From: Candidatus Gygaella obscura
GTDB lineage: Bacteria; Omnitrophota; Gorgyraeia; Gygaellales; Gygaellaceae
Assembly: GCA_030765485.1 (NCBI GenBank)
Contig: JAVCCR010000032.1
Span: forward strand, 166,289 to 230,288
DNA length: 64,000 bases
Reading direction: 5' to 3'
How positions within the stretch are numbered: position 1 is the first letter of the stretch; each line of letters opens with the position of its first letter. The notes below the pieces were generated by a model. That model had not been told where the DNA came from. It saw only the letters and a program-made list of their open reading frames with translations, and did no database searches. A program made the translations under genes and the position numbers. Positions 7,932 through 38,315 of this stretch are shown here, in pieces.

Positions 7932-8672
7932 ATGAATAAATCAGGAAAAATTACAGGAATTATATTTATTTTACTTATCGTCATTTTGGTTTCTGCTGCC
8001 GGTTATTTATTTTTTCAGTGGCAACAGGAAAAGCAGCGCGGGGATGCTTTGCAGGTAAAAGTTTTATCATTAGAAACGGAAAAAAAAGCTTTAGTCAGTA
8101 AATATAGAATTACTCTTGTTAAGCTAGAGGAATTGGATGTCCAGTTAAAAGAAAAGGATTTAAAGGCGCAGGCCTTAGAAGAGAATTTGCGTAGCGCCGA
8201 AGAGTTGAGAAAAAAAGCCATAGAAGACGTAAACGCGATTCATCAGCAGATGGCAGAAGCTGAGAAAGCAAAGAAAGAACTCGAGATCCAGTTAAATCAG
8301 ACCAAAGAAGAATTAGATTCCTTAAAGTCAAAAATGAACGTAATCCATGAATCTAGTAAGGTTGAAACCCAAGAGCAGATTTATTCTTCAGCGGAAGACG
8401 TGGATTTAGAAAAAATTGTAGTTTCTTCGAATGAAAGCCTTCAGGCTAAAGACGCTCGGGTTTTGGTTGTAAATAAAGAGTATGATTTTGTAGTTCTAAA
8501 CCTTGGTAAGCACGATGATATTGCAATAGGAGATATAGTTCAGGTAATAAGAGGCGATGCTATTATTGGTTCTTTGGAAGTTGAGGAAGTTAGAGAAACT
8601 ATGTCTGTTGCCAGATTCTCCACAGAAGGTTTAAAAGAACAGATAAAAGAAGGCGATTTACTAGCTTTATAA
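7932..8672 (+). CDS. Membrane-anchored coiled-coil protein with a conserved C-terminal beta domain (hypothetical)
   Basis: 246 aa with an N-terminal TM helix (ITGIIFILLIVILVSAAGYLFF), ~130 aa of heptad-rich coiled coil, and a C-terminal block VVLNLGKHDDIAIGDIVQVIRGD..IGSLEVEEV. I do not recognise a family. Confidence 0.45.
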   Translation: MNKSGKITGIIFILLIVILVSAAGYLFFQWQQEKQRGDALQVKVLSLETEKKALVSKYRITLVKLEELDVQLKEKDLKAQALEENLRSAEELRKKAIEDVNAIHQQMAEAEKAKKELEIQLNQTKEELDSLKSKMNVIHESSKVETQEQIYSSAEDVDLEKIVVSSNESLQAKDARVLVVNKEYDFVVLNLGKHDDIAIGDIVQVIRGDAIIGSLEVEEVRETMSVARFSTEGLKEQIKEGDLLAL

Positions 8673-8679
8673 ATTTATA

Positions 8680-9987: not shown

Positions 9988-9998
9988 TAAAATTATGA

Positions 9999-18534: not shown

Positions 18535-18536
18535 TA

Positions 18537-18986
18537 ATGTTTTCTCCATTTAGAAAGGTTGTCAATAAACAATTAGGTGAATTGCTGGTAGAGCATAAGA
18601 TTATAAGTGAGGCGCAGTTGAAGAAGGCGCTAGCTTTGCAAAGCCAGCGTTGCGGTGCTTTGATTGGTGAATTAATAGTAGAGCTGGGTTATGCCAAGGA
18701 AGAAGATATTGCTAATACCTTAGCTGCCCAGTACGGTTTTCCTTATTTGCCTTTGGATAATTATTCTGTTGATGAGAATATCGTAAAACTTATACCGAAA
18801 AATGTTGCAAATCAGTATTGCTTATTAGCGATAGACAAATTGGGTAATTCTATCGTTGTAGCAACAAGTAATCCTTTGAATACTCAGGCGATTGAAGACG
18901 TCGAGTATATAACCAATTGCGATGTCCGTGTTTTTATCAGTACAGCCACGAGCATCAGGGGCAAGATTAAAGAATACTACCAATAG
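18537..18986 (+). CDS. Standalone MshEN / T2SSE_N domain protein (predicted c-di-GMP-binding)
   Basis: 149 aa. QLGELLVEHKIISEAQLKKALALQ matches the MshEN 24-residue c-di-GMP binding motif (LGxxLVxx-IIxxxxLxxxLxxQ). The rest matches the GspE N-terminal domain fold consensus (...YGFPYLPLDNY...). Confidence 0.7.
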   Translation: MFSPFRKVVNKQLGELLVEHKIISEAQLKKALALQSQRCGALIGELIVELGYAKEEDIANTLAAQYGFPYLPLDNYSVDENIVKLIPKNVANQYCLLAIDKLGNSIVVATSNPLNTQAIEDVEYITNCDVRVFISTATSIRGKIKEYYQ

Positions 18987-18989
18987 TAA

Positions 18990-20717: not shown

Positions 20718-20721
20718 TAAT

Positions 20722-22443
20722 ATGGTTAAATCATTAAGAGATAAAATTCTTGATTTTTTACTTGAGGAAAAACGGATTACAAGAAGCGATATAGAGAGGT
20801 TTTCTAAGCTTCAGGAGCAAAGCAATCTTAAGATTGAAGCTATTTTGATTGATAATGCTATAATTTCTGCACAGGAGTATTTGTCTATGCTGGCAAAAGA
20901 AACTAATACTCCAGTAGTATGTCTTGAAAAAATAGATTGTGATCCGGAAATTTTAAATATTATTCCTGAAAGGATATGTCAGCAGTATAGTATTTTTCCT
21001 GTTGCAAAATTGGGGAATCTTTTAACTTTGGCTATGTCAGATCCAATGAATATTTTTGCTATGGATGATATAAAGTCTTTAACTTCTTTAGAAATCAATA
21101 CAATTTTAGCCAGCGAAGAAGATATTAAAAAGAATATACAGTTTTGGTATGAGGAGTCAAAGAATAAGGATATATCTGAACTTATCGGAGAAGTCAATGA
21201 AGATGAAATAAATGTAGTCGGAGAAGGAAAAAAGAGAGAATTTGAGGGCCAGTTTGATTTAGACAGAGCAATGCTTGAAGCTGAAAAGTCTCCTGTTATC
21301 AAACTTGTTAATCTTATGCTTTCAGAGTCATATCAGAAAAGGGCATCGGATATTCATATTGAACCAGAAGAGGATTTTTTAAGAGTTCGTTACAGAATTG
21401 ATGGAATGTTGCATGATGCTTATCAGATACCGAAAGATAAGCAGAATGCCGTAATTACACGTTTAAAAATAATGTCTAATTTGGATATTACGGAGTTCCG
21501 TATTCCTCAGGACGGTCGTTTTAAAATCCGTTTGGGTCAGAATGAAGTGGATTTCCGTGTTTCCATATTACCGATCAGTTTTGGGGAAAAGGTAGTTTTG
21601 CGTTTATTGGATAAACGTAATCTTTCGATTGGTTTGGAAAAGTTGGGGTTTTTAGCTGAGCCCATGCAGAAATTCAGAGATTGTATCAATAAACCTTATG
21701 GGATGATTCTTGTAACTGGTCCTACTGGTTCTGGTAAATCGACTACGCTTTATTCGATTATCAATCAGCTCAATACTCCTACGACGCATATAATTACTGT
21801 TGAGGACCCGGTAGAGTATCAGATCGAAGGTATAGCCCAGATTCCGGTTAAGCCGGATATTGGTCTTACGTTTTCAGCAGGTTTGAGAGCACTTTTGCGT
21901 CAGAGTCCTGATATTATATTAATTGGTGAGATTAGAGATTCTGAAACTGCAGATATTTCCGTTAAGGCATCTTTGACGGGGCAGATGGTTTTATCTACGT
22001 TACATACCAATGATGCCGCAGGGGCTATAACTCGACTTATTGATATGGGGGTAGAGCCGTTTTTGGTTTCTTCAAGTTTAATCATGACTTGTGCTCAGAG
22101 ATTAAGTAGAAAGATTTGTAGTAATTGCAAGGCAGAATATAAACCTGATCCGACTGTAGTGAAAAATCTGGGAATAAAATTAGAAAAAGGTTCAGTTCTT
22201 TATCACGGAAATGGATGTTCTCATTGTAATAATACAGGTTACCGTGGTAGAATAGGGACAATTGAAGTTTTGGTTATTGACGATAAGATTAGGGAGATGA
22301 TTATTGAAAGAGTTTCATCTGATGAAATCCGTGATTATGCTGTAACCCAGGGCATGGAGACATTGAGGGACAATGGCATTCGTCAGGCTCTCATAGGTTT
22401 AACTACCTTAGAAGAGGTTTTAAGGATAACCTCAGAGGAATAA
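20722..22443 (+). CDS. Type IV pilus/T2SS ATPase PilB/GspE (paralogue 2)
   Basis: 573 aa with the same architecture as paralogue 1 (GPTGSGKSTTLYS, VEDPVEYQI, TGQMVLSTLHT, CSNC...CSHC). Full-length, with an N-terminal T2SSE_N domain. It is not a PilT. Confidence 0.9.
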   Translation: MVKSLRDKILDFLLEEKRITRSDIERFSKLQEQSNLKIEAILIDNAIISAQEYLSMLAKETNTPVVCLEKIDCDPEILNIIPERICQQYSIFPVAKLGNLLTLAMSDPMNIFAMDDIKSLTSLEINTILASEEDIKKNIQFWYEESKNKDISELIGEVNEDEINVVGEGKKREFEGQFDLDRAMLEAEKSPVIKLVNLMLSESYQKRASDIHIEPEEDFLRVRYRIDGMLHDAYQIPKDKQNAVITRLKIMSNLDITEFRIPQDGRFKIRLGQNEVDFRVSILPISFGEKVVLRLLDKRNLSIGLEKLGFLAEPMQKFRDCINKPYGMILVTGPTGSGKSTTLYSIINQLNTPTTHIITVEDPVEYQIEGIAQIPVKPDIGLTFSAGLRALLRQSPDIILIGEIRDSETADISVKASLTGQMVLSTLHTNDAAGAITRLIDMGVEPFLVSSSLIMTCAQRLSRKICSNCKAEYKPDPTVVKNLGIKLEKGSVLYHGNGCSHCNNTGYRGRIGTIEVLVIDDKIREMIIERVSSDEIRDYAVTQGMETLRDNGIRQALIGLTTLEEVLRITSEE

Positions 22444-22444
22444 A

Positions 22445-25400
22445 ATGCAAAAAGATTTAATTATCTATATTGATGAGTTGACCGAACTTTACAATAGAAG
22501 ATATCTTTCCCAGGTTTTTCCCAAGGAACTTAAAAAAGCTCAGGAAAAAAATTACAGTCTTTGGTTTTTTATGATGGATTTAGATAATTTTAAAGGCATC
22601 AATGATACCTTGGGTCATTTGGCCGGAGACGATGCTTTAAAAAGTCTCGCGGTGGTTTTGAAAAAGAATATGCGCGAGCAGGATATACTTTTTCGTTATG
22701 CAGGTGATGAATTTTCCGCAATTATCCCCGGTGGTACGCTTTCTGATGTTCTGGCGGTAGCTAAAAGAATTCTAGAAAACGTTGCCAGGTCCTCTTTTGG
22801 CAGTAATCCTATGCAGCCGGCAATGAAATTCACGGTTAGTATCGGTATTTCTTGTTTTCCTGAAGATGCAGTCGATACCCTGCGTTTGATTGATTTGGCT
22901 GACAAAGCCCTTTATGTATCGAAAAGAAAAGGTAAAAATCATATTTCCGTCGTTAGCGATGTGCCTCCAGAAGTTTTAAGTCTGTATCAGATTTTAGAAA
23001 AATTTCCTTGTCCTGTTTTTATCGATAGAGTAGAAGAATTAAACCAGCTTTTTAAAGCTACAGACGAATTTATAGCGCATAAAAAGAAAAAGAACATTTT
23101 TATATTCGGAAATTCCGGAATAGGAAAGACAAGGATTTTACATGAGTACGGAAAGAGAATTTCCAGTAAAAACATAAGCTTGATAGTTTCGCACGCAAAC
23201 GAAAAAGACATTTTTACAAATTATCATATTTTTATCGATGGTATTAGCGATTATTTCAAGACGCATAGTTTTCAGATGGAACTGCTGGAAGGTTTAGATG
23301 ATAAGGCTAAGTCAATTTTGGTAGGTTTTATTCCGGATTTGAAACGATTCGTAAGCGTTTCCGATACAGAACTTAAAAATCTTTCTGGTAAATCAATTAA
23401 GGATGAAGAAATAAAGATTATTTTCAAGAAATTTATTTCTAATATATGCAAAAAGCATTCTTTGTGTTTTGTGGTTGATGACCTGCAGTGGACAGATAAG
23501 GCAAGTTTGGATTTATTAAAGGAATTTAATTCCATAGAAGAAAGTCTGATGGTTATTGCTGCGGTTTCTAATGATTATGTTGTGCAAAAGGATAACCTTG
23601 TTCCTTTAAGCGATTTTATAACTAAGCATAGTTTATCTTTTGAGAGGCTTGATGTTAAACCATTTGAAAAAGAACAGGCTGCTAAGATGGTTAATGCTGT
23701 TTTTAATTCTTTGGATAATTTGAACGAATTTACATCGTTGTTATTTTCTGTTACCAAGGGTTCACCTTTATTTATTGAAGAGCTTCTAAAGTATTTTATA
23801 AATCGTGGTTTTGTTTTTTATCGTAAAGGAAAATGGGGTTGGTTGGATATAAGAAAAGAAGATCTTCCTTCAAGTATAGAAGAAGTCGTTGCTCAGCGTA
23901 TAAAATCTTTAAGTTCTGAATTAAAAGAGGTCATTACTCAGGCATCTGTAATCGGAGAGGGTTTTGAATTAAATCTTCTTCAGAAGTTAGGTAAAAAGAA
24001 TCAGGGCTATCTTATGGATTTGATTGAAACCGCCAAGAAATCTGGTCTTATCAGGGAGGAAAAAGGAGCTGAAGGCACCAGATTTGTTTTTACTAGTGCA
24101 AAAGTAAAGGATGTTTTATATGGTTTGGCAGATAAAAATGAAATTAAAAATCTTAACCGACAGATCGGACAGATAAAAGAAGAGATTTATAAAGGTAATG
24201 AAGATCAGGTTGCCGGCGAGTTATACTATCGATTTAAAAAGGCAGAAGATGAAAAGAAAGCTACTCGTTATGCAAAGATGGTTAAAGAAGGCCGTTCTTT
24301 TGTTTATGAAAAGAGTATTCATTTTGCCAAGGGTCTTCTGGAAGAAGTACAGGTTACTGAACAGGAAATTCCTGATAAGGTAATTGATGGAGTTTCTGAT
24401 ATTGTACGTCTTATTTATGTTTCCCAAATTAACAGCAGTCTTTATCCAAAGGGCAGCTCCATGCGTACTCAACCTTTGGCAGATTTGATTTCAAAACTAA
24501 AGAATATCTTTGAATATGTTTTGGTGGTAAGTTTTAGTCATTTTAATGAATTTTTAGTTGTTAATAATCGGATTTACGATAATGAGAGCCTTAAGGGAAC
24601 ATTTAGGAATGCATTTATTGGTCTTTTAAAGCAGAACAAGATTGAAAAAATTTCTTTTTTCCCTAGTTTAAGCGTAGAGGAGTTGGAGAATTTTTTAGAA
24701 TTGTTTGAATCAAGTGAAAAAGAAATATTCAAGAATAAATTTAATCAAGAAGAATTTGCTAATATAAAGGTAGAGTATTTAAGTTATGAGAACTATCTTT
24801 CCAAAAGGACCAAAGACAGAGAGCAGTTGCAGGATATTATGCTTTTGGATTATCTTTTAGGTAAAGTTCCTGGAGAAGGCATAGGGGGCAAGATGGATAT
24901 TCTTGATAAAATCCAGACACATAGTCAGGATATAGCTTCTGCTCTTACCAAGATGGCGGATAAAGTTAGCAAGCAAAAAGGAGTTGATAAGGATTCGGCA
25001 AGGGCAGATATACTTTCTGATAATTTTAAGAAAATATCTCAGCATATATTTAATAAAGGAGAAGGGGCCTGGGATAAGTATAAGAAAGGGCTTGCCAATA
25101 CAATACTTTCACTTGAACCTAATCTGCGCGATGAGGTTTTACATAAACAACTTGAAGAGGATAAGAAAAATGCCGCGCTTGAAAATAATCAGTCTGCTTC
25201 TGATACATCCGAAGAAGCTGTTTCTTTTGATAATACAGATGAATCGACTGGTAATTTAAAAAAAGATGCTTTGAAAGATCAGCCGCAGCAGGATATTATC
25301 AAGGCCTTAGCAGGAGAATTTCCCGAAGATGTTGTTCTGGATTTGATAAAGAAGGAATATAAAGATGGCGACAATAGCCCCGAGCAGTTTAAAGAGATAG

Positions 25401-26608
25401 TTCTAAAATTCTTGCCTGAAGATAATGACCAGAAAAAAACCTTGATGGATAAGATTAGTAAGCTTTTAAAAGAAGAAGGGGCTTCGGAAGAAGAGTTGAA
25501 GTTTCTTACTCAGGAAGAATTCTGGCCAAAACTTGGATTTAGTGAAAAGATTATAGATTTTATGAATATGGCTTCAGATAGATATGTATATATTTCCAAC
25601 AAATACGGGTTTAATCCGGTTATGGAGTTTGCGCTTTCTTCAGAGACAGGAGAGGTTAAAAAAATACTTGAACGCTTGGTTTATTTTATTGAGTCGGATA
25701 GCTTAGAAGCAAAAAAGATAGCCAAGCAGGACCTTCTGTCCTTGATTGATCTGGTGTTTACTTATAAGAAAAGCGAATTTTTAGAATTGTTAATTAATAC
25801 ATTTATCGCTGAATTGCGCAAAGAGCATAATGAAGAAACTACCAGTATATTTATTAATCATATTGAAAAACTTACTTATGTTGTTTTTTCTATGGCAGCT
25901 TTTGATTTATTCTCCAAAGTAATTAATGAATTAAAAAAACTTGTTGCAGAAGATAACACTTCCGAAGATATGAAGGCAAATCTCAGTTTGGTTTTATCTC
26001 ATATTTGCTCAGATGAAATAGTTCAACGATTGATTGAAAGATTATTTAATTATGTTGATAGCAATGAGGATTATTCTCAAATTATTCAGATTTTTGTTGC
26101 CATCGGTAAGCAGGCAGCGAATAGATTGATTGATGAGGCAATGTTTGAGAAAAACATAAATGTTGTAGGTTATTTCGGCGGATACCTTAGAAGAAAGGCT
26201 GTCGGTAATATTTTAAATATGATGGATAAAAATGATGTTATGGAGTTTATAAAAAATAGACTTCAAAACGAGAAGTGGTTTATTGTACGCAATACAATTG
26301 ATTTAATTATGCATATAGATAATCCTGAGTATATTTTACTTCTTGGAATCGTGAAAGATAATAACGATTCGCGCGTAAGAAGAAAACTGCTTTTTGTTTT
26401 GGGTAGGTTTAAGAGCAAGCAGGCATTGGATATTTGTTATTCTCTGGCTAATGACCGTGATGATGCTATTGCTATGGGTTCGATAAAGCTGATTGCTTCT
26501 ATTGGAGATAAAGATTCTCTTGATTTTTTGAACAATTTATCTGTAAAACATTCCTTGCGTGATGAGAAAAATAAAGCTATTGAAGAGCTGAAAGAAAGGT
26601 TAAAATAA
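22445..26608 (+). CDS. Large multidomain signalling protein: GGDEF (RYAGDEF, I-site REQD) - AAA16/STAND-type P-loop NTPase - helical/HEAT-like repeats
   Basis: 1387 aa. Residues 1-175 form a GGDEF fold (DLDNFKGINDTLGHLAGD...RYAGDEF...KALYVSKRKGKN). Walker A is FGNSGIGKTR and Walker B is LCFVVDDLQWTDKASLDLL, the AAA_16/STAND signature. The C-terminal ~250 aa are HEAT/PBS-like repeats (DSRVRRKLLFVLGRF...NDRDDAIAMGSIKLIASIGD). It is translationally coupled to pilB2 upstream and to the MshEN gene downstream. Confidence 0.7.
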   Translation: MQKDLIIYIDELTELYNRRYLSQVFPKELKKAQEKNYSLWFFMMDLDNFKGINDTLGHLAGDDALKSLAVVLKKNMREQDILFRYAGDEFSAIIPGGTLSDVLAVAKRILENVARSSFGSNPMQPAMKFTVSIGISCFPEDAVDTLRLIDLADKALYVSKRKGKNHISVVSDVPPEVLSLYQILEKFPCPVFIDRVEELNQLFKATDEFIAHKKKKNIFIFGNSGIGKTRILHEYGKRISSKNISLIVSHANEKDIFTNYHIFIDGISDYFKTHSFQMELLEGLDDKAKSILVGFIPDLKRFVSVSDTELKNLSGKSIKDEEIKIIFKKFISNICKKHSLCFVVDDLQWTDKASLDLLKEFNSIEESLMVIAAVSNDYVVQKDNLVPLSDFITKHSLSFERLDVKPFEKEQAAKMVNAVFNSLDNLNEFTSLLFSVTKGSPLFIEELLKYFINRGFVFYRKGKWGWLDIRKEDLPSSIEEVVAQRIKSLSSELKEVITQASVIGEGFELNLLQKLGKKNQGYLMDLIETAKKSGLIREEKGAEGTRFVFTSAKVKDVLYGLADKNEIKNLNRQIGQIKEEIYKGNEDQVAGELYYRFKKAEDEKKATRYAKMVKEGRSFVYEKSIHFAKGLLEEVQVTEQEIPDKVIDGVSDIVRLIYVSQINSSLYPKGSSMRTQPLADLISKLKNIFEYVLVVSFSHFNEFLVVNNRIYDNESLKGTFRNAFIGLLKQNKIEKISFFPSLSVEELENFLELFESSEKEIFKNKFNQEEFANIKVEYLSYENYLSKRTKDREQLQDIMLLDYLLGKVPGEGIGGKMDILDKIQTHSQDIASALTKMADKVSKQKGVDKDSARADILSDNFKKISQHIFNKGEGAWDKYKKGLANTILSLEPNLRDEVLHKQLEEDKKNAALENNQSASDTSEEAVSFDNTDESTGNLKKDALKDQPQQDIIKALAGEFPEDVVLDLIKKEYKDGDNSPEQFKEIVLKFLPEDNDQKKTLMDKISKLLKEEGASEEELKFLTQEEFWPKLGFSEKIIDFMNMASDRYVYISNKYGFNPVMEFALSSETGEVKKILERLVYFIESDSLEAKKIAKQDLLSLIDLVFTYKKSEFLELLINTFIAELRKEHNEETTSIFINHIEKLTYVVFSMAAFDLFSKVINELKKLVAEDNTSEDMKANLSLVLSHICSDEIVQRLIERLFNYVDSNEDYSQIIQIFVAIGKQAANRLIDEAMFEKNINVVGYFGGYLRRKAVGNILNMMDKNDVMEFIKNRLQNEKWFIVRNTIDLIMHIDNPEYILLLGIVKDNNDSRVRRKLLFVLGRFKSKQALDICYSLANDRDDAIAMGSIKLIASIGDKDSLDFLNNLSVKHSLRDEKNKAIEELKERLK

Positions 26609-26610
26609 TA

Positions 26611-27081
26611 ATGCCTTTTAAAAGACAGTCGATATATAAGAAGCAATTATTGGGCCAGATTTTTTTAAAAAGCGGGATTATCTCTAAGGAGCAGCTTAAG
26701 GAAGCGCTTGAAACACAGAAAAAAGAGGGTGGGTTTTTAGGAAGCGTATTGATTAAGCTTGGTTATTTGACTGAGATGGATTTGGTTACAGGTTTGTCTA
26801 GCCAGTGCAGTATACCTTATTTGCCGCCTCAAAGATATAAAATACCGAAAAGTGTTTCTGAAATCATGACTGAGGATTTTTTAAGAGAGAATAGTTTTGT
26901 TCCTATTGATAAATTTCACGATACTCTGACAGTTTGTATGGTTAATCCTTTAAATGATCGGGCAATAAGCGAGATTTCACGAGTTAGCAATATGGAAGTT
27001 CTTGCCTGTATTGCCACAAAGGAAGAAATAGAAAAAACAATTAATAGCTTATTTAAGAAAAATTCTAAAAATGGATTGTAA
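26611..27081 (+). CDS. Standalone MshEN / T2SSE_N domain protein (second copy)
   Basis: 156 aa. LLGQIFLKSGIISKEQLKEALETQ is an excellent match to the MshEN c-di-GMP binding motif. Downstream is ...CSIPYLPPQRY..., as in GspE N-domains. Confidence 0.7.
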   Translation: MPFKRQSIYKKQLLGQIFLKSGIISKEQLKEALETQKKEGGFLGSVLIKLGYLTEMDLVTGLSSQCSIPYLPPQRYKIPKSVSEIMTEDFLRENSFVPIDKFHDTLTVCMVNPLNDRAISEISRVSNMEVLACIATKEEIEKTINSLFKKNSKNGL

Positions 27082-29442: not shown

Positions 29443-29452
29443 AAAGGAAATG

Positions 29453-32038
29453 ATTATGAAAAATAAAAAAGGTATTGCTATTATTGTAACATATTCTATC
29501 CTTGTGCTTTTGTTGATGCTTTCTGCCGCGTTTATGTATCAGGGTATAAACGCCAATTATTTAACTAAAAAAAAGCTTACTAATAATACTGCGCGTGCAA
29601 ATGCAGAAAAAGGTATTGCTTATGTTTTAAGGGAGCTTTCTTTTAATTCTGATTTGATAACGCATACGGTTAATGCTTCTACAGATGTCTTAGAGAGTGC
29701 TGATCTTACTGCGACTCTTAAATTGCCCAATACTGCTATTTTAAATGATGCCCAACTTGATATAGACGGTTGTTACTTTGGTTATGGAAGTTCTGTTAGC
29801 GATGTTCTATTTAGGGTAAAAACATATCATAAGCCAGGTTCAGAAGGTGATACAGTGGTTGTAAGTCAAGGTATAGACGCAGGTCATACTGTTTATCTGG
29901 CTTCGACTATAAGCTCTACGAGTCTTTATGATTATTTTATGTTTTTTCAAGGGAATCAGTCTTTTGGTTGGGGAAGTAATTTTGATGGGAAAGGTTTAGG
30001 AAGAATTTTTGTTAACGGCAATGCTTATTTTACTCAGGGTAAGATTACCGATGCTGCAGAATTTGCTGTTGCAAAGGATATAAAGATTCCCGCGAGTACT
30101 TATAATACGCCTGCTAGGTTAGACTCAATTGATGGAACAACAGATAATAAGGCTCCGTTACCTACTCTATATGTAGATATGGATTGTGGTAGTATTGCAA
30201 GTGATCCTGCGTTGAAACAAGTCGCGTTTGACAATATTCATTATAATGATGCTAGTGATTGGCCGCCACCTTACATGACAATGACTACGGAAGCACGAAA
30301 GGCGATTTATAACGAAATCCATGATTTTAACGGAGATGGTAATGTAAATAAACTTGATTATGTTTACATCCCGGATAAGACCGATGAAACAAAATCTTTA
30401 CCTTGGAAAGCAGATGGTTATGTTTATAACGAATGGTTGCCCGCAGGTAGTTATATCAGGGACTGGAAAGATGTAGATAACCATTTTTATATACCTTCAA
30501 ATTTTTATAAGCAGTTTATTTTTACTGCTGAAGGAAGTGGGACTACTGCAGATTATTCATTTAATCTTCCTAGTACAGGCAGTACACCTGCTTTTGCAAC
30601 GAGTTGGGATTGGCAGATGTATAATACAAGCGAGCCATATCCTTTAACCTGGCAGGCTTATGATTATGAAACAGGCGCAGTGGTGGACGTTGCGAATAAT
30701 TTTAGTGATGAAGGATACTGGAAAAATATTCTAAGGGCCTTAGAGGATACTGGTAATCTTAGTGATATTGATAAAGCCGATATTGAAAATTACGCCTGGG
30801 CTTATGGAAGTAATACAACAGTAAGCGTTAATTATTTGGATACTGCCGTACAATCTCTAGAATGGAATGGTTGGCTTGAAAGCACAACTATGGCTTTGGA
30901 TTCCGGAGATACTTTAAAATTGTCTGATGTTGTTAAAACCAATGAAGGTATTATTAATCCTCCTGAGGTAGCAGAGTATTATGCTACATTAGCCCAGGAT
31001 CCTACCGTGGGTATTTATATTGATCCAGATGAGATTATTGCAGGAAGTTCTGCTGATCCTAAAGTTCAGGCTTTAATTGATGAAAGTTGCATTACAATGA
31101 CACAATTCTATAATAATTATAATCCTGTTGTTGATACAACTACAACAAAAGATCCCGATACAACCAATGATATTACATTTCCTGAACCGGCAGTAAAAGT
31201 TGATGTTGCCTGTGTAAAGGCTTTATCTGACTCAGGTGAATCTTTTAAGGCAAATGTGATTTATGTAAAGCCTGCGATAAAAAGTGTTGCCGGTCAATTA
31301 GTAGATAATTCTCCTTCTGGCACAAATAAAGATATACCTATAAGTAGTCTTCTTGTTAATGGTGAAAGTATTCCCGATGGGGGCATGACTTTTGTAGCAC
31401 CTTATCCAGTTTATGTAAAGTCAGATTTTAATATTTCCGATCCTCAGCCAGCATCCATTATAACGAATTCTAACTACTATGTTTTATCTGATCAATATCA
31501 GGATTATGGTACAGAAAGACGTACATCACTCAATAAACCTGCGACAACCTGTACAGGTGAATTTACTGATCCCAGTTGTGATGGGCCTCAGCATCTGCCC
31601 GGTCTTAGATATTCAACTGACGGTTATTCAAATCCGCTTGAGTATCCATATGAAACTCCGGAACATACTATTTTTGCGGGAAAGAACAATCCACCTGTTG
31701 CTGCAGAAAATAAAATGGGTGATATAACACAAAGGGTATCAGTTGTTATTCCCGGAGGTCTTTATACTTCGATTGAAAACGGCTATGGTTCAACAGTTAG
31801 TATAATCGGTTCGAGAATAGAAGTAGATTCATGGACAAGTGAAAGTAGTAGGCTTGGGTATTATGATCGCAGTAGGGTAAGCCCTGGTGGTGTTAGTACA
31901 TACTATGGTGCTAGCGTTGTCCGGGATTATGATGAAATGTTACTGACAAGTAAGCCCCCGGGAGATTTTAGCGGTACAGCAAGTGAGCTGATGGTTGAGG
32001 TAACAGCAGATGATTTCTTGAAGAACACGAAATTCTAA
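29453..32038 (+). CDS. Large PilX-N-like pilus-associated protein with EF-hand/dockerin-like Ca-binding loop (putative tip adhesin, PilY1-like role)
   Basis: About 860 aa. The N-terminus KKGIAIIVTYSILVLLLMLSAAFM resembles the PilX_N minor-pilin anchor. There is a DFNGDGNVNKLDY loop (nt ~30323-30361). The protein is Gly/Thr/Asn/Asp-rich with no other recognisable family. Confidence 0.45.
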   Translation: MMKNKKGIAIIVTYSILVLLLMLSAAFMYQGINANYLTKKKLTNNTARANAEKGIAYVLRELSFNSDLITHTVNASTDVLESADLTATLKLPNTAILNDAQLDIDGCYFGYGSSVSDVLFRVKTYHKPGSEGDTVVVSQGIDAGHTVYLASTISSTSLYDYFMFFQGNQSFGWGSNFDGKGLGRIFVNGNAYFTQGKITDAAEFAVAKDIKIPASTYNTPARLDSIDGTTDNKAPLPTLYVDMDCGSIASDPALKQVAFDNIHYNDASDWPPPYMTMTTEARKAIYNEIHDFNGDGNVNKLDYVYIPDKTDETKSLPWKADGYVYNEWLPAGSYIRDWKDVDNHFYIPSNFYKQFIFTAEGSGTTADYSFNLPSTGSTPAFATSWDWQMYNTSEPYPLTWQAYDYETGAVVDVANNFSDEGYWKNILRALEDTGNLSDIDKADIENYAWAYGSNTTVSVNYLDTAVQSLEWNGWLESTTMALDSGDTLKLSDVVKTNEGIINPPEVAEYYATLAQDPTVGIYIDPDEIIAGSSADPKVQALIDESCITMTQFYNNYNPVVDTTTTKDPDTTNDITFPEPAVKVDVACVKALSDSGESFKANVIYVKPAIKSVAGQLVDNSPSGTNKDIPISSLLVNGESIPDGGMTFVAPYPVYVKSDFNISDPQPASIITNSNYYVLSDQYQDYGTERRTSLNKPATTCTGEFTDPSCDGPQHLPGLRYSTDGYSNPLEYPYETPEHTIFAGKNNPPVAAENKMGDITQRVSVVIPGGLYTSIENGYGSTVSIIGSRIEVDSWTSESSRLGYYDRSRVSPGGVSTYYGASVVRDYDEMLLTSKPPGDFSGTASELMVEVTADDFLKNTKF

Positions 32039-32048
32039 TTTTTAATTA

Positions 32049-32702
32049 ATGGCGCAGATAAATCTTTTACAGACAAGGATGGTTTTAAAGACAAAAAAAG
32101 CCAAGGCGCAAAATGGTGCAGGTAGCGCTAAGGGTTTTAATTTTGATTTTAAGATAAATTTCAGAAGAATGCCCCGCTGGTTTTTTATAATTGCTATTGG
32201 CTGGATTGCGTTTTTATTTATCGGTGAAACTGTATTGCTTTTGCGTCTGAGTGGTGAGAAGAAGAAATTAAGAATTTTAGAAACCGAAGGAACTCTTTTT
32301 TCAAAGAGCCCTAAGGAATTGAGTGCTTTAAAGAAAAGAAAAAAAAGCATGCAGGATGCTTTAGGTATTATTGAGAGTTTTTTGATTACCAAAACACCGT
32401 TTTCGCAGGCGCTAAATATTATCAGTGATGAAGTAGTTGATGGTCTTTGGCTCGAGAAGATATTTTTTAATTCTAAAAAAATTGATAAAGATAACGATCA
32501 AATAATTATAAAGATAAACGGTAAGGTTTATTCAGTAATTGCCCAAGAACAGATTGATATTCTGGGACAGTTTTCTAGTGGTTTAAAAAATAATCCTTAT
32601 TTTGAGTTATTATTTAGTGGTCTAAAGGTAGGCAATCTTAAAAATGTAAATTTTCTTGGTTTTGATGTGTTGGATTTTGAGATGGAGGTAACTTTAAAAT
32701 AA
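32049..32702 (+). CDS. pilN: Type IV pilus inner-membrane alignment protein PilN
   Basis: N-terminal MAQINLLQTR (the INLL hallmark of PilN), a single TM (WFFIIAIGWIAFLFIG), then a periplasmic domain. Confidence 0.6.
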   Translation: MAQINLLQTRMVLKTKKAKAQNGAGSAKGFNFDFKINFRRMPRWFFIIAIGWIAFLFIGETVLLLRLSGEKKKLRILETEGTLFSKSPKELSALKKRKKSMQDALGIIESFLITKTPFSQALNIISDEVVDGLWLEKIFFNSKKIDKDNDQIIIKINGKVYSVIAQEQIDILGQFSSGLKNNPYFELLFSGLKVGNLKNVNFLGFDVLDFEMEVTLK

Positions 32703-32707
32703 GGCAT

Positions 32708-33289
32708 ATGGATTTCGATATTAAACAAATTATTGATTGGGCTAAGTTGCGCAAAGTAGAACTGATTCTGCTTAGCGTGTTATTTTTGATAAGTACTGTA
32801 TTGTCTTTCTTGCTATTTCAACCGCAGGCAAGAAAAATCATGCAGTCTCAAGAGAATCTTAAAGCAAGCACAAAAGATACTAGTAATCTGCGTACGGCAC
32901 AGGTTGAGTTAGCTAATTTGAAAAAAGAGATTATTTCTATCGAGGAGAAATTAGTAAGCCACGAGGGAAAACTTTTTTCTCAGGAAGACTCGCAGGCATT
33001 TTTAAATTATATCAACCGGATTTCAAAGTTTTATAACGTGAGGATTCAAAAGATTAATCCACTTTCACAGGTAAAGAAGGAAGTGAAATCTCTTGATAAG
33101 ATTTATTTAGCTTCTCCTTATCGGTTGAGTTTAACTTGCAGTTATCATAATCTGGGTAAATTCTTAAATAAATTGGAGCAGTCAAAAGATAGGTTTGTTA
33201 GGGTTGATAGTCTTTCCGTACAGGCTGATAGTTCTAAGACAAGAGAGCATAAAGTTGAGCTGGGGATAACTATTTTTTCCATAATGTGA
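32708..33289 (+). CDS. pilO: Type IV pilus protein PilO-like
   Basis: 193 aa with an N-terminal TM, a coiled coil and a ferredoxin-like C-terminus. Position after pilN. Confidence 0.5.
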   Translation: MDFDIKQIIDWAKLRKVELILLSVLFLISTVLSFLLFQPQARKIMQSQENLKASTKDTSNLRTAQVELANLKKEIISIEEKLVSHEGKLFSQEDSQAFLNYINRISKFYNVRIQKINPLSQVKKEVKSLDKIYLASPYRLSLTCSYHNLGKFLNKLEQSKDRFVRVDSLSVQADSSKTREHKVELGITIFSIM

Positions 33290-33290
33290 G

Positions 33291-33677
33291 ATGAAAAGAA
33301 TAATTATAATATTTTTGGTTTTGATTTTAACTTCAATTTGTCTTGCAGAAGAAAATGCTTTTGAAGAAAGATTGAGTTTTAAGTATAATGATAATGATAA
33401 GCGTGATCCGTTGATCCCTTTACTTGATAAAGATGGTTTACGTCCTAAATCAGAGTTGTTTGAGAAGGCAGAGCTGCCTATAGAAATAAATTTATCAGGT
33501 ATTGTTTGGAATAAAGATGTGCAATTTGCTATAATAAATGGTAAAATAGTAAAAGAAAATGAAGAAGTTGCAAGAGGGTTGATTTTAGAAAAAATAAATC
33601 TTGAAAGCGTCGTCTTGGAGTATGGAGAAAGAAGCACTACTATATATATAGGAGGCCCCAAGAAGGATGGTAAGTAG
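33291..33677 (+). CDS. pilP: PilP-like pilus assembly protein
   Basis: 128 aa with a signal peptide, the KRDPLIP motif (the RDPF-type motif of PilP), and a C-terminal beta domain. Position between pilO and pilQ. Confidence 0.5.
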   Translation: MKRIIIIFLVLILTSICLAEENAFEERLSFKYNDNDKRDPLIPLLDKDGLRPKSELFEKAELPIEINLSGIVWNKDVQFAIINGKIVKENEEVARGLILEKINLESVVLEYGERSTTIYIGGPKKDGK

Positions 33678-35211
33678 TAAAAGAATAAAATTAGTTTTAA
33701 TTTTTTTATTTATTTTTAGTTTCTGCAACTTTACACTTTACGGTGAAGAGCCGTCTATGATTGAGCCTTTATCTGATGAGTATCAGATGGCCTTTGAGCA
33801 AATATCCCAAGAAAAACCACAGCAAGAGATTAAACAAGAGTCTAAAGAAGAGCCTATTGCTATTGAAGCAGGCCGGTCTTTTAACGGAGAAAATACTATA
33901 GATGAAGATTTTGTGAATCTGGCCTTTGATAATGCTGATATCCGCGATGTTATTAAGGTATTGGCTGCGAAAAGCGATATGAATATTATCGTTGGAGAAG
34001 ACGTAAAGGCTAATGTTACCATGAAGCTTAAGGATGTTATCTGGGAGTCGGCCTTAGAATTAATTCTAAACACGTATAATCTTACTTATCAAAAAGAAGG
34101 CAATCTTATAAGAGTTATGACTTTAACTGAGGCAGAAGAGGTAGCGAAGAAAGTACCTATGATTACAAAGATTATTCCTCTTAATTTTGCTCAGACTGCG
34201 GAGATGTCAGCATCGATTGCAAAGATGCTTTCTGCAAGAGGTTCTGTTCAGGAAAATAGCCGTACTAATACGCTGATTATTACTGATATTCCTTCGCGCG
34301 TAAGGATGATGGAAGAGACTATTGAAAAACTTGATACGCCTACGCCGCAGGTTTTAATTAATGTGTTGATTGTCGATATTACTTTAACCGACAGTGATGA
34401 TTTAGGTGTTGACTGGCAGGCAATTACTACAAATCAGCTTGCAGATCTTTCTTCTGCTAATAGATCGAAGACAGCTACATTAACACAGCCCAGCAACATG
34501 TCTTCAACCGGAGGACCGGCATTTACGCTAGCGCTTGTTAAAAAATTCGGCGAAGCTGATTTCACCGCTAATCTACAGGCATGGATTGAAAATAAAGAAG
34601 CAAAGGTTTTAGCAAATCCAAGGATTTTGACGCTTGATAACCAGGAAGCAAAGATTGAGATAATAAATCAATTTCCTTATTTGCAGACTTCCAGTTCAAG
34701 TGATGGCGGTACTACATCGGGAACTGAATATAAGAATATTGGAACAAGTCTTAGCGTTACTGCGCATATTACTAATGATGGGCATATAACTTTGAATCTA
34801 AAACCTTCTCAGGATATAAATGCTGGAAGTGATTCTACTACAGGTGCACCAATAGTTGATACACGTTCAGCGGAAACAAACGTGTTGGTAAGAGATGGCC
34901 AGACTGTTGCTTTAGGCGGTTTAAGGCGCGTTGATAGGGCTACAACTGTTAATAAAGTTCCTATTTTAGGAGATATCCCCTTTATTGGTAAAATATTCCA
35001 GAATAGACAGATTGATGATAAAGATGTTGAGTTGGTGATGTTTGTCACGCCTTATATAATTAAGGATGCTGGAATTAGCGAAGAGGAAAAAATATTTATA
35101 GAAGCAAATCTTCCTGGTCCGCAGAGGCCGTTTTCCCGGAATAGTCCTTTTCTTCTGGAAGAAAAATACGATTTAAGACCTCCTGTAAAAAAAATTAAAG
35201 GGAATTGGTAA
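33667..35211 (+). CDS. pilQ: Type IV pilus secretin PilQ
   Basis: Signal peptide and N0/secretin_N domains. The C-terminal secretin block is GGLRRVDRATTVNKVPILGDIPFIGKIFQNRQIDDKDVELVMFVTPYII. Confidence 0.9.
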   Translation: MVSSKRIKLVLIFLFIFSFCNFTLYGEEPSMIEPLSDEYQMAFEQISQEKPQQEIKQESKEEPIAIEAGRSFNGENTIDEDFVNLAFDNADIRDVIKVLAAKSDMNIIVGEDVKANVTMKLKDVIWESALELILNTYNLTYQKEGNLIRVMTLTEAEEVAKKVPMITKIIPLNFAQTAEMSASIAKMLSARGSVQENSRTNTLIITDIPSRVRMMEETIEKLDTPTPQVLINVLIVDITLTDSDDLGVDWQAITTNQLADLSSANRSKTATLTQPSNMSSTGGPAFTLALVKKFGEADFTANLQAWIENKEAKVLANPRILTLDNQEAKIEIINQFPYLQTSSSSDGGTTSGTEYKNIGTSLSVTAHITNDGHITLNLKPSQDINAGSDSTTGAPIVDTRSAETNVLVRDGQTVALGGLRRVDRATTVNKVPILGDIPFIGKIFQNRQIDDKDVELVMFVTPYIIKDAGISEEEKIFIEANLPGPQRPFSRNSPFLLEEKYDLRPPVKKIKGNW

Positions 35212-36854
35212 TGAGAAGAAAGCTTCCATTTGTTTTTGCACTTTTATTTTCCATTTCTTTTTTAAATTGTTCCTTTGTTAAAGCAGAGTATTCTCTTATT
35301 GGTGAAGAGGGATTGATTTGGAAGAAAAGCGTCGACGGCATAAAAGATGCAGTAAGAGATTTGCTTGCAGAGAATAAGAATTTAAAGCAGCAGATCGATT
35401 TAAGATCTCTTGAGATGCATAAGCTAAATGAAGTTCTTAAGGCTTTGCAGGATAAAAACGACACGTTGGAAAAGAAGATTGAATCAATGGATCTTAAGGT
35501 TACATTAAATAGCAAAGTCAAATCTCTTACCCGGAGAAATGAATCTTTAAAAGGGCTAAAAGGCTCGTTAGAAGTGGAGGTTAAACAGCTAAGGGCAAAT
35601 AATATAAAATTAAAAAAAGATTCCGATGTTTTGGAGAAAGAGGTTAGTTCTTTAGGTAAAAGATTCGAAATCACTCAAACCCAGCTTGAGGAATTAAAGG
35701 ATTCGTATATAAATTTTAAACAAAAGTCAGTTGATTATGAGAAAGAGTTAGAAGGAAAGTTGATAAATCTACAATCAGAAAATAAAAGGTCATCTGGAGC
35801 TATCCAGGATAACGAGAAATTAGCTGTTCAGCTTCGAGATTTAAAAGAAGAAAAGATTGATCTTCTAAGTCAGCTTAAGACTACAAAAGAGCAGTTTAAG
35901 AATATCGATTCATTAAGTCAGAAGATTGTTGATTTACAGAATGAAAAGCAAAGATTATCCGATAGTTTAGAAAATTCTCGAATTGAAATTGAGGAGCTGA
36001 AAAAAACTCTGGAAGAAAAAGACAATTTTATAGATTCCAATAAAAATGAACTTAAAAAGATTGAATTGCTCTCAAATGAATTATCTAAAGCCGAGAAGGA
36101 AAAGTTAGGTTTTAAAGATGAAATTGTTTCTCTTAAGATACAGTTAAATGAATCCAACAATAAATTAGAGATTTCTGAAAAAGAGATAGAGGTTTTAAGC
36201 GAATCTTTCAATAAATTCAAGCAAAAATCTATTGAAAATCAAGAAAAACTAATTGAAACACAAAAAGAAAACACCAACCTAGGAAGCAGAATCGCTCCTT
36301 TAAAAAATCAACTTGATAATTTACAGGAAAAACTCGTAATTTTAGAAAAAGAAAAAGACTTGGCTTTAAGAAAATCCGTTGTTGTAAATGATGCAGATAA
36401 GGCTAAAAAGGTTAAAAGAATTCCTGTTTATTTAAAAGAGCAGGTTGAAGATAAAAGTAGCACAATACCTAAAGTTATAAAATTAAGGGCATTTCAACAA
36501 GCAGAAAAAAAACTTAACAGCTTACAAAAGCTTGATTTAGGTATTATTGAAGTCATGCTAAGTAACGCTTATAATTACGCTAATAATAATCAGATAAGCC
36601 TAGCATCTCGGGAATATAGAAAGGTTTTAGATCTTGATTCTAAGAATAAAGATGCGCTTTTTAATCTTGGTGTTGTTTATTTAAATAATCATAATGTTAA
36701 ACATGCGATTGCTAATTTTGAGAAACTTGTAGAATTAGATCCAAATGATGCGCAGGCTTTGTATAACCTTGCTTTATGTTACAGTAAGATGCATAATAAA
36801 AAGCAAACCGAATTTTATTATTTAAAATACCTGGAACTTGAAAATGACTCTTGA
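35211..36854 (+). CDS. Secreted long coiled-coil protein with C-terminal TPR repeats (FimV/PilF-like candidate)
   Basis: Signal peptide MRRKLPFVFALLFSISFLNCSFVKA, then about 400 aa of continuous heptad coiled coil (ELKK..., LQNEKQRL...), then 2-3 TPR motifs (ALFNLGVVYL..., AQALYNLALCYSKM...). Confidence 0.45.
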   Translation: MRRKLPFVFALLFSISFLNCSFVKAEYSLIGEEGLIWKKSVDGIKDAVRDLLAENKNLKQQIDLRSLEMHKLNEVLKALQDKNDTLEKKIESMDLKVTLNSKVKSLTRRNESLKGLKGSLEVEVKQLRANNIKLKKDSDVLEKEVSSLGKRFEITQTQLEELKDSYINFKQKSVDYEKELEGKLINLQSENKRSSGAIQDNEKLAVQLRDLKEEKIDLLSQLKTTKEQFKNIDSLSQKIVDLQNEKQRLSDSLENSRIEIEELKKTLEEKDNFIDSNKNELKKIELLSNELSKAEKEKLGFKDEIVSLKIQLNESNNKLEISEKEIEVLSESFNKFKQKSIENQEKLIETQKENTNLGSRIAPLKNQLDNLQEKLVILEKEKDLALRKSVVVNDADKAKKVKRIPVYLKEQVEDKSSTIPKVIKLRAFQQAEKKLNSLQKLDLGIIEVMLSNAYNYANNNQISLASREYRKVLDLDSKNKDALFNLGVVYLNNHNVKHAIANFEKLVELDPNDAQALYNLALCYSKMHNKKQTEFYYLKYLELENDS

Positions 36855-37920
36855 TCAAAAAGGCTTTTTAGGAATAAAGAGTAGTTTTTTTAAGAAAAAA
36901 GAAAAAAGTTTTGTTGGAATTGATATTGGTTCATCAAATCTTAAAATTGTAAGGCTTGCCCCGAATAAAGAAACTAAGAAAATCCAGTTAACTGATTTTG
37001 CGAATATAGCTTTTGAGGAACAGGTTTCTAGTGACCAGATAAAAAAGGCATTAGAGGAGGCATTACGCCAAACCAATATTTCCAAAGATAGCGATGTGGT
37101 TTTTAATATCCCCAATAACTCTGCGATAACCCGTTATGTTGTGATGCCGAAAATGAACCATGATGATTTAAGAAAGGCTATTGGGTATGAGCTGGAGAAA
37201 TATATTGCTTTTGATACAAAAGAAGCCGTTTACGACTTCCGTATTTTAGAAAACGCACAAGTAAAAGAAGGACATTTGAAGGTCCTTTTGGTTATTACTA
37301 AAAAGGAAACTGTTGATGAAAGGGTGAAGGCAATCGAGGATGTAGGGTTTATTCCTAAGGTGGTGAGTATTGATTCAGTTGTGATTTCTAATACATTTTA
37401 TCTTAATCATGCTGATAAAAAGGATAAGAATATCGCTATTGTAAATCTTGGTTCAAGGCTTTGTAGTATAAGTGTTGTAAGGGGCGGTATCTCCAATTTT
37501 ATGCGTGATATCGCTGTTGGCATAGAAAATATCGTAAGTCTGGTTTCGGAAAAGCTAGAGATGAATAAGGCCGATATCTTAAATTCTATATTAAAGCCGG
37601 AACTTCAGTCGAAAGAGTTTAAAGATATAATAAATTCTGTACTTTCAAATCTATTAAATGAACTTTACCTTTCTTTTGATTATTACGAAACGCAGTTTGA
37701 GACTTCTATCGATGAAATTTATATAACCGGTGGACTTTCGCAACAGCCGGGATTAATAGAATTTTTATCCAATAATCTAGGTATAACGGTAAATAAGCTT
37801 AATCCTTTACAGAACCTTGATATGTCAGTCGATTTGAGGTCGAAGCTTGATTCGAAGAAGGATATTATGGCTGTAAGCATAGGTCTTGCCTTAGAAGATT
37901 CCGATTTAAAATATTTTTAA
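36844..37920 (+). CDS. pilM: Type IV pilus assembly protein PilM (actin-like)
   Basis: FVGIDIGSSNLKIVRL phosphate-1 motif with a PilM/FtsA-like fold. ATG 36844 is the likely start; the ORF track gives TTG 36838. Confidence 0.85.
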   Translation: MTLDQKGFLGIKSSFFKKKEKSFVGIDIGSSNLKIVRLAPNKETKKIQLTDFANIAFEEQVSSDQIKKALEEALRQTNISKDSDVVFNIPNNSAITRYVVMPKMNHDDLRKAIGYELEKYIAFDTKEAVYDFRILENAQVKEGHLKVLLVITKKETVDERVKAIEDVGFIPKVVSIDSVVISNTFYLNHADKKDKNIAIVNLGSRLCSISVVRGGISNFMRDIAVGIENIVSLVSEKLEMNKADILNSILKPELQSKEFKDIINSVLSNLLNELYLSFDYYETQFETSIDEIYITGGLSQQPGLIEFLSNNLGITVNKLNPLQNLDMSVDLRSKLDSKKDIMAVSIGLALEDSDLKYF

Positions 37921-37928
37921 AATTTCTT

Positions 37929-38315
37929 ATGAAAAAAGAACTTATCGTTATTGGTGATAAAGTGTTGATTTCTGTTTATGAAGGAAGCGATAAGACAGAT
38001 TTTGGACTGTATTTACCTCAAGGGATAAAAGAAAAAGAAAAAGTTGCCGCAGGTTTGATTGTTAAATCCGGTCCCGGTTATCCTGTGTGGCAGGCAAATA
38101 CAATAGAGAATGAAGACTGGAAACAGCCTTATAATAAAGAAGCTACAAATTACATAGCGCTTCAAGCAAAAGAAGGTGATTATTGTATTTTCTTGCGTGA
38201 TTCTGCAGTGGAAGTCCGTTATGAAAAGAAAAAATACGTTGTAGTACCGCATTCGGCAATACTTCTTTTGGTCAGAGGCGATATTGACAAAGCGATAAAT
38301 CTTCTGGAAAAGTAA
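37929..38315 (+). CDS. GroES/cpn10-fold protein (orphan co-chaperonin-like)
   Basis: 128 aa. LIVIGDKVLISVYEGSDKTDFGLYLPQGIKEKEKVAAGLIVKSGPG aligns to the GroES pattern (L.P.GDRVLV....T.GGI.LP....K...G.VVAVG.G). It carries a ~30 aa insertion. No groEL is adjacent. Confidence 0.45.
   Translation: MKKELIVIGDKVLISVYEGSDKTDFGLYLPQGIKEKEKVAAGLIVKSGPGYPVWQANTIENEDWKQPYNKEATNYIALQAKEGDYCIFLRDSAVEVRYEKKKYVVVPHSAILLLVRGDIDKAINLLEK

Follow-up and report, generated by a model that had tools for sequence, protein, structure and literature searches.

A 64,000-nucleotide stretch of DNA from Candidatus Gygaella obscura, a member of the Omnitrophota (assembly GCA_030765485.1, contig JAVCCR010000032.1, positions 166,289 to 230,288 of the forward strand; hereafter the window), encodes a pilus system in which a gene, named X here, is located between the gene for a PilQ-type secretin and pilM. 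Gene X is real, and it is an accessory gene, restricted to its phylum, in a type-IVa-pilus-like cluster whose gene order is not the canonical one. We give even chances to the proposal that its product is a non-lipidated, pilotin-like secretin accessory, whose tetratricopeptide repeats (TPRs) bind the secretin at its C-terminal tail, in the manner of TadD and RcpA. The direct basis of this proposal consists of the domain anatomy of X, its export signal, its synteny and gene overlap, the conserved ends and plastic middle of the protein, and the co-occurrence and co-loss of X with a short motif in the secretin tail; from these we infer the contact between TPRs and tail, the oligomeric state of X and its effect on secretin assembly.

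Secretins depend on helper proteins, and the secretin-helper pairing has proved to be a separate one in every secretion or pilus family so far investigated. Type IVa pili are described in PMC10066038 as nearly universal in the Omnitrophota and are thought to mediate host-cell attachment; the machine itself has so far been left undissected in this phylum. What is added here is a lineage-specific accessory family and a candidate contact between a three-TPR block and a six-residue tail motif, together with a natural experiment comprised of orthologues with rods of 50-470 residues and of a lineage that has neither X nor the motif. If the proposal is true, the tail docking known from TadD/RcpA would reach beyond the Tad systems to a PilQ-type secretin, and a pilotin-like function would be possible without a lipid anchor; if tail docking is false, X would be a TPR protein of uncharacterised role that is confined to a single phylum. 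To a pilus specialist the gene itself would come as no surprise, and it is the pairing with the tail motif that constitutes the specific prediction.

Position and reading frame of gene X

Gene X (35211..36854 of the window, forward strand, stop codon included), as defined from the listing of open reading frames (ORFs) and from the junction sequences, encodes a protein of 547 amino acids (aa), and not of approximately 400 residues as an earlier sequence-only reading of this DNA had it. Its ATG start codon shares one base with the stop codon of the secretin gene (TAATG), and its TGA stop codon is located 11 nt inside pilM, which starts with an ATG at coordinate 36844; this overlap between the X stop and the pilM start, seen in the junction sequence, had been pointed out correctly. 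The same 547-aa product, with the same boundaries, was also called by independent gene callers on eight public contigs, and it matches exactly the NCBI entry 'tetratricopeptide repeat protein [Candidatus Gygaella obscura]'. The source is a metagenome-assembled genome of Candidatus Gygaella obscura, an organism described from an Antarctic lake (PMC8542988); a 241-kb contig of the Joint Genome Institute carries X. Scans for promoters and terminators gave counts near X that were at chance level, and no notable DNA tandem repeat was found.

The identity of both neighbours, on which the sequence-only reading had based the placement of X between pilQ and pilM, is confirmed. The upstream gene (33667..35211, forward strand) encodes a 514-aa PilQ-type secretin with PF00263, Secretin_N, STN and N0 domains (PF00263, E = 4e-48; TIGR02515, 293.5 bits versus a cut-off of 284.35), and the downstream gene is pilM (36844..37920, forward strand; 358 aa; PF11104, E = 1e-40), for which the gene calls on public contigs begin at the same ATG. 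The displacement of pilM behind the secretin gene is indeed unusual. Among 80 PilM loci, collected as PilM relatives from GTDB species representatives, the secretin is located downstream of pilM, as in the canonical order, in about 70, the rest being too short for a secretin to be seen in either direction; the reverse placement, with the secretin upstream of pilM, was found in Omnitrophota loci only.

Domain anatomy of X

The X protein starts with a signal peptide of the signal peptidase I type (aa 1-26, MRRKLPFVFALLFSISFLNCSFVKA/EY; 35211..35288, on the forward strand like the other segments of X described here), as read from the sequence: the N-terminal MRRK is followed by a 14-residue hydrophobic core and by a VKA/EY cleavage context. 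The n-, h- and c-regions and an A-x-A/Q/K/R cleavage context are found in all 10 orthologues (see section below). The N-terminus therefore looks like a type-I signal peptide, and the protein looks exported, as had been claimed, and not cytoplasmic. The cysteine at position 20 is located in the context F-L-N-C, which is no lipobox, and is a tyrosine in the 60 %-identical orthologue of locus L004; no cysteine is conserved across the 10 signal peptides, and the invariant cysteine that defines the lipobox of PilF, PilW and Tgl is consequently missing. Outside the signal peptide, the composition of X is strongly charged (80 K, 60 E and 32 D of 547 residues).

The signal peptide is followed by a conserved 'head' helix (aa ~32-75; 35304..35435), which can be aligned among all 10 orthologues and has the consensus W-x-K-S-V-x-x-I-K-x-A-V-x-x-L-L-x-E-N-x-x-L-K. 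A hidden Markov model (HMM) built from this head matches family members only. The head is the beginning of a heptad-periodic helical rod (aa 32-388; 35304..36374), which was delimited by its heptad contrast and by AlphaFold2, the latter run on the single X sequence and confident in the TPR block only. Over the rod the a/d contrast is 0.509 (z = 9.9), the value for 500 shuffles being 0.265 +/- 0.025, and the spectral peak puts the dominant hydrophobic period at 3.48 residues; as X is proline-free between aa 7 and 362, the rod displays the sustained periodicity of ~3.5 residues in a proline-free helical region that characterizes a coiled coil. The sequence-only reading had described a long, uninterrupted heptad coil. 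The heptad signal is clear, while the uninterrupted character is not retained: the rod is predicted to consist of four helices of 60-99 residues each (aa 32-92, 95-193, 198-296 and 302-388) with three breaks (aa 93-94, 194-197 and 297-301), and its heptad register shifts several times. The rod also shows an internal duplication, with aa ~44-192 resembling aa ~211-355 and the motif FKQKS present in both; the self-alignment score of 135, versus 75 +/- 10 for shuffles, overstates its significance because the shuffle null keeps no heptads.

A charged, proline-containing linker that is predicted to be disordered (aa 389-440; 36375..36530) joins the rod to the C-terminus. It is poorly conserved in sequence, and its residues 389-425 are without secondary structure in the AlphaFold2 model, with a predicted local distance difference test (pLDDT) value of 29-43. 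The C-terminus itself is composed of three TPRs and a capping helix (aa 441-547; 36531..36851), as had been claimed. This region is matched by the Pfam families TPR_1/2/8/11/17 at aa ~446-545 (E = 1e-9 to 1e-12), and the matches over aa 453-531 exceed the gathering scores of TPR_17 (46 bits, cut-off 24.4), TPR_11 (44.4 bits, cut-off 26.8), TPR_1 (41.1 bits, cut-off 27.8) and TPR_2 (37.7 bits, cut-off 27). The fold is backed by AlphaFold2, with a pLDDT of about 90 over aa 441-546, and by Foldseek, which matches the block to designed CTPR3 modules with a root-mean-square deviation (rmsd) of 1-2 Å over about 100 residues; the peptide-bound designed TPR 3kd7 is among the nearest structures (rmsd 1.1 Å). 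Over seven orthologues, the TPR block is the most conserved region of X.

The X family across the Omnitrophota

Nine further orthologues of X were found, all of them between secretin and pilM in Omnitrophota clusters of the order N-O-P-Q-X-M: L004 (626 aa), L005 (595 aa, protein P0140), L006 (451 aa), L007 (464 aa), L165 (464 aa), L166 (455 aa), L168 (472 aa), L095 (= L047; 260 aa) and L125 (213 aa). The distance of X to its neighbours is mostly between -4 and +12 nt on the secretin side and between -17 and +28 nt on the pilM side. Together with the window protein, these 10 orthologues all possess a signal peptide, an N-terminal helix, a coiled coil and a C-terminal three-TPR block, the latter ending with Y-[YF]-x-x-[YF]-L-[KE]-[LIV]. 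The length of the protein ranges from 213 to 626 aa, and that of the rod between the conserved ends from about 50 to 470 residues.

This pattern of conserved ends and a plastic middle is illustrated by the comparison of the window with its closest relative, L004, in which PilM is 86 %, the secretin 82 % and X 60 % identical. By region, the identity of X is 73-76 % for the head, 65 % for the TPRs and 42 % for the rod, and the window protein carries a 38-residue insertion and a 118-residue deletion. The lengths of PilN, PilO and PilP are identical in the two clusters (217, 193 and 128 aa, respectively), and the secretins are 514 and 521 aa long. Two related loci, L008 and L009, have clusters of the order N-O-P-Q-M that are without X.

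The family was collected outward from PilM homologues, through their neighbouring genes, because consensus TPRs and coiled coils swamp sequence searches. A word-indexed search with the X protein retrieved X itself and generic TPR proteins only, and a six-member alignment did no better. An exhaustive HMMER search gave 28,431 matches at E <= 0.001, the best 150 of which were multi-TPR proteins, and among 11 candidates that were inspected by sequence the L005 orthologue P0140 was the sole family member; since multi-TPR proteins rank high on them as well, local HMMs of X cannot define membership. A less circular check on the position of X was provided by a metagenome scan in which proteins were recruited by a generic TPR pattern alone: 5 of 84 TPR-bearing ORFs had the architecture of X, of which four were located at secretin/pilM loci and the fifth was a polytopic membrane protein. 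Each recognisable member of the family is located between secretin and pilM, so that the link to the pilus proposed in the sequence-only reading holds and no scatter over random genomic locations was found.

Several candidates were rejected. Two verrucomicrobial coiled-coil and TPR proteins of about 740 aa (P0298 and P0285) are encoded beside deoC and metabolic genes and not beside pili, and the matches in L027 (720 aa) and L126 (653 aa) are polytopic membrane proteins with C-terminal TPRs that do not belong to the X family. In the passages of the Omnitrophota literature on pili and secretins that were covered, no mention of X was found.

Locus L005 additionally encodes, inserted between secretin and X (1460-2014), a 184-aa exported paralogue of the X head and first coiled-coil segment that is without TPRs.

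A conserved motif in the secretin tail

Beyond its secretin domain, the window secretin carries a C-terminal tail (aa ~467-514; 35065-35208), in which the secretin alignment reveals the motif YDLRPP (aa 501-506; 35167..35184, forward strand), corresponding to Φ-x-L/I-R-P/S-P. Such a tail is present in 10/10 X-linked secretins and is divergent in length and sequence except for this motif, which is its sole conserved element and which is found in all ten, 3-16 residues from the C-terminus. The variants are YDLRPP, YDLRSP, FTLRPP (twice), IYLRPP (twice), FYLRPP, FYIRPP, FSLRPP and FPLRPP. The motif was found in neither of the two X-less secretins of the same clade, nor in any of five canonical pilMNOPQ secretins from the same genomes. 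A stricter pattern, [FY]x[LI]R[PS]P, which misses the two IYLRPP tails, gave four unrelated matches in 1.3 million residues of other ORFs.

In a tree built by neighbour joining from secretin plus PilM (722 columns, 200 bootstraps), all N-O-P-Q-(X)-M systems form one clade with 100 % bootstrap support, and the X-less pair is placed inside the X clade, as sister to two short-X systems (88 % bootstrap). The nesting of the X-less pair within the X clade indicates that X and the tail motif were lost together.

One of the two X-less loci deserves mention for its secretin. The L009 secretin (8358-9995) is about 80 aa longer than that of its sister L008, and where the motif would be it ends with a strongly charged helix and one TPR-like repeat (…LYKEAVNYYNHNQFPEAEHAFEHILILDPDETEAREYLE…). 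This repeat gives a sub-threshold match to TPR_2 (E = 7e-5) and is not detected by a TPR HMM built from the X orthologues. The extension hints weakly at a fusion of X and secretin functions, an argument that is weak because the sub-threshold Pfam match is all that detects the repeat.

Putative function of X

According to the proposed mechanism, X would be a periplasmic, non-lipidated accessory subunit of the Omnitrophota type-IV-pilus-like machine, whose C-terminal three-TPR module docks onto YDLRPP in the disordered tail of the secretin encoded upstream. The conserved head helix and the variable-length coiled coil would oligomerise, and the oligomer could either cluster or cross-link several tail-bound TPRs round the secretin ring or tether this ring to another envelope component. 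The likely effect would be to help the secretin multimer to assemble or to stay stable. The window secretin, according to Pfam, has one Secretin_N domain and no AMIN domain, and the cluster encodes no lipoprotein pilotin. Three-repeat TPR modules commonly bind short extended peptides; because of this property, of the resemblance to peptide-bound 3kd7 and of the precedent of TadD and RcpA, the TPR block is predicted to bind Φ-x-L-R-P-P. In the precedent, RcpA places its four C-terminal residues in the central groove of TadD, and the secretin cannot form without them (PMC10499894).

A number of observations weigh against this proposal. The PilQ of Pseudomonas aeruginosa needs no C-terminal residues for the binding of PilF (PMC10499894), and tail docking is therefore not general among type IV pili; the motif found here is moreover not located at the extreme C-terminus, unlike the binding residues of RcpA. 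The X-less lineage of L008 and L009 shows that X is dispensable in some machines, and the co-occurrence of X and motif comes down to no more than two independent events, namely a single origin and a single joint loss. Because the family was recognised largely by synteny, its positional conservation is partly circular. The model of the coiled coil is of low confidence (pLDDT 50-75 for the rod; predicted template modelling score 0.28), and the similarity of the TPR block to Tgl and PilW (see section below) is not specific, since the block is near the generic TPR consensus.

A more far-reaching form of tail docking, which we hold to be doubtful, is that X represents a lipid-independent way of building or bracing a secretin, in which coiled-coil oligomers with several tail-binding TPR heads form a periplasmic collar or tether. 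Such a structure would gather the secretin protomers and take over from the lipoprotein pilotin as well as from the AMIN/peptidoglycan anchors of classical type IVa pili. Its rod would be free to lengthen and shorten through internal duplication, by which the envelope architecture of these bacteria, which are ultra-small and attach to hosts, would be tuned.

X might also be a periplasmic accessory whose TPRs have their ligand elsewhere than in the secretin tail, for instance in a pilin, in PilP or in a different envelope protein, in which case the tail motif would serve an unrelated purpose, e.g. recognition by BAM or by a chaperone. Room for this reading is left by the fact that synteny and export are established whereas the contact between TPRs and tail is what we infer, by the co-loss of X and motif being a single event, and by a consensus-like TPR giving no clue to its ligand; as the sole conserved element of the tail would then have to match both the gain and the loss of X by chance, we think it rather unlikely. 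The sequence-only reading had further suggested that the protein could set the distance between secretin and inner membrane; the coiled coil would then act as a trans-periplasmic ruler that spans from the secretin to the inner-membrane PilMNO platform. X does consist of two conserved ends joined by a rod, its gene sits between those of an outer-membrane and an inner-membrane component, and by our own calculation about 350 helical residues would measure ~50 nm when extended, or about 15 nm as hairpins of ~100 residues. However, the rod comprises anything from about 50 to 470 residues among the orthologues, the window and L004 proteins differ by indels of +38 and -118 residues where PilN, PilO and PilP are identical in length, the short forms (213 and 260 aa) are too small to reach across a periplasm, and one sub-lineage (L008 and L009) has lost X. 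With rods that vary tenfold in length beside partners of constant size, and with systems that lack X, a fixed ruler is unlikely, and the suggestion is not supported.

A classical lipoprotein pilotin of the PilF/PilW/Tgl/TadD type, which brings the secretin to the outer membrane via the Lol pathway, would equally be a TPR protein encoded beside a secretin; secretins are known to have TPR partners in MshN and TadD (PMC10499894), and X displays NCBIfam matches to Tgl and PilW. These matches are nevertheless sub-threshold, 5- to 14-fold under the curated cut-offs, and X lacks a conserved signal-peptide cysteine and has three TPRs instead of 5-6. Nor are pilotins known to contain a coiled coil, and we regard this identity of X as very unlikely. 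The PilF-type TPR module fused to a spacer, as suggested in the sequence-only reading, comes nearest to the evidence as far as the module and the spacer are concerned, whereas a true PilF-type pilotin is contradicted by the missing lipobox, the number of repeats and the low scores. The same reading had drawn a comparison with FimV and HubP, large pilus- or pole-associated proteins with extended low-complexity or helical regions and TPR-like repeats, and with it the idea of a polar organiser or peptidoglycan anchor. The likeness, which lies in TPR-like repeats combined with a coiled coil or low-complexity region, is superficial, although a secretin without AMIN domains would make another anchor plausible. 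Pfam and NCBIfam give TPR and generic coiled-coil matches only, with no LysM, OmpA, SPOR, AMIN, PG_binding or other peptidoglycan-binding family in X at E <= 0.01, and the signal peptide is the only hydrophobic segment, no further transmembrane helix being present; a FimV/HubP-type organiser is thus highly improbable.

The pilus cluster around X

By its Pfam families (T2SSE twice, T2SSF, N_methyl twice, PilO, T2SSB, Secretin and PilM_2), the window has the gene content of a type IVa pilus cluster, in the non-canonical gene order N-O-P-Q-X-M. The secretin gene is preceded, in the same order in all related loci, by a PilN-like gene (32049-32702), by pilO (32708-33289; Pfam PilO match) and by a gene in the position of pilP (33291-33677), which encodes a 128-aa protein with a T2SSB domain (Pfam match), all three on the forward strand. 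The PilN-like product has no match in Pfam or NCBIfam. The INLLP peptide of PilN is the segment that binds PilM, and since the N-terminal MAQINLLQ of this product, encoded in the position of pilN, resembles it, the gene is probably a divergent pilN. Farther upstream of the secretin gene are pilC and two prepilin-like genes. The two PilB-like ATPases score 638 and 628 bits, just under the PilB cut-off of 675.65.

An 862-aa ORF (29450-32038), flanked by the two prepilin-like genes on one side and by the PilN-like gene on the other, starts with a hydrophobic, pilin-like segment (MIMKNKKGIAIIVTYSILVLLLMLSAAF) and has no family match in Pfam or NCBIfam; judged by this location, it may encode a giant minor pilin or tip protein. 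Directly after pilM, a 128-aa Cpn10/GroES-like protein is encoded (37929-38315), in a position that is kept in L004 and L005. No GroEL gene adjoins it, and a typical GroES is shorter, with about 95-100 aa.

A dense set of cyclic di-GMP (c-di-GMP) genes (17131-27081) is located ahead of the pilus cluster. It comprises a GAF-GGDEF protein (17131-18534), the two tandem PilB-like ATPases with their MshEN N-domains (18990-20717 and 20722-22443), a 1387-aa protein with GGDEF, AAA_16 (STAND-like) and HEAT domains (22445-26608), and a pair of proteins of about 150 aa with a stand-alone MshEN domain (18537-18986 and 26611-27081). This set was found again in L006, L007, L008 and L165.

Four loci (L007, 11469-19868; L165, 10419-18909; L166, 10410-18281; and L168, 6447-14578) carry tandem secretin systems: directly behind N-O-P-Q-X-M come pilin genes, a gene for a DUF4900 protein and a second set, this one in the canonical order pilM-N-O-P-Q and equipped with a secretin of its own. 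The Gygaella window has no second pilM-N-O-P-Q set downstream. Just upstream of pilM, two Planctomycetia loci of the canonical pilMNOPQ type encode a TPR protein of ~630 aa without a coiled coil (L013, 7860-9773; L041, 7890-9761), which may be an unrelated pilus-associated TPR protein.

Comparison with known systems

The pair of TadD and RcpA resembles that of X and its secretin in two ways: in both, a TPR protein is encoded with the secretin of a type IV filament, and where the unstructured C-terminus of RcpA occupies the groove of TadD (PMC10499894), a motif in an unstructured secretin tail here co-occurs with X. The differences are considerable. TadD, a lipoprotein of the outer membrane, contains five TPRs and is devoid of a coiled coil, whereas X combines a type-I signal peptide with three TPRs and a coil of 50-470 residues, and the binding residues of RcpA are at its tip, whereas the motif of the X-linked secretins is 3-16 residues from the end. 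MshN of the MSHA pili is a distant homologue of TadD; neither TadD nor MshN was among the Pfam, NCBIfam and PDB matches listed for X, none of these comparisons being a homology test aimed at them.

PilF of P. aeruginosa, PilW of Neisseria and Tgl of Myxococcus are, like X, TPR proteins, and they are needed by PilQ-type secretins. They are lipoproteins composed almost wholly of about six TPRs, in contrast to X, which is mostly coiled coil and has no lipobox, and PilF makes no use of the PilQ C-terminus (PMC10499894), while X is proposed to use the secretin tail. On the models of these pilotins, X scores 29.7 bits for PilW (TIGR02521, cut-off 154) and 16.1 bits for Tgl (NF033762, cut-off 225), and the best orthologue, that of L125, reaches 40.3 and 46.2 bits, respectively, still under the cut-offs. 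For the short orthologues, Tgl (E = 3e-12) and PilW (E = 3e-10) are the best or near-best NCBIfam matches, again below the cut-offs, and MamA, LcrH and Ycf3 score about as well as Tgl and PilW on X.

FimV is built differently, with a LysM domain on the periplasmic side of a transmembrane helix and its TPRs in the cytoplasm, whereas X has neither LysM nor transmembrane helix and its TPRs would be periplasmic. The nearest PDB matches by sequence and fold are designed consensus TPRs and also OGT; the C-terminal 105 residues of X superimpose on CTPR3/CTPR390 and on SGT-type three-TPR domains with an rmsd of 1-2 Å and 30-38 % identity, a likeness of fold and consensus only, which holds no information on the ligand. 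A possible parallel is Amuc_1098-1101 of Akkermansia, another member of the Planctomycetes-Verrucomicrobia-Chlamydiae (PVC) superphylum, comprising a secretin, coiled-coil proteins and a PilM/FtsA-like gene. Taken together, X is best described as a protein that resembles most the pilotin-type TPR partners of secretins (TadD, MshN, PilF, PilW and Tgl), and that stands outside those families.

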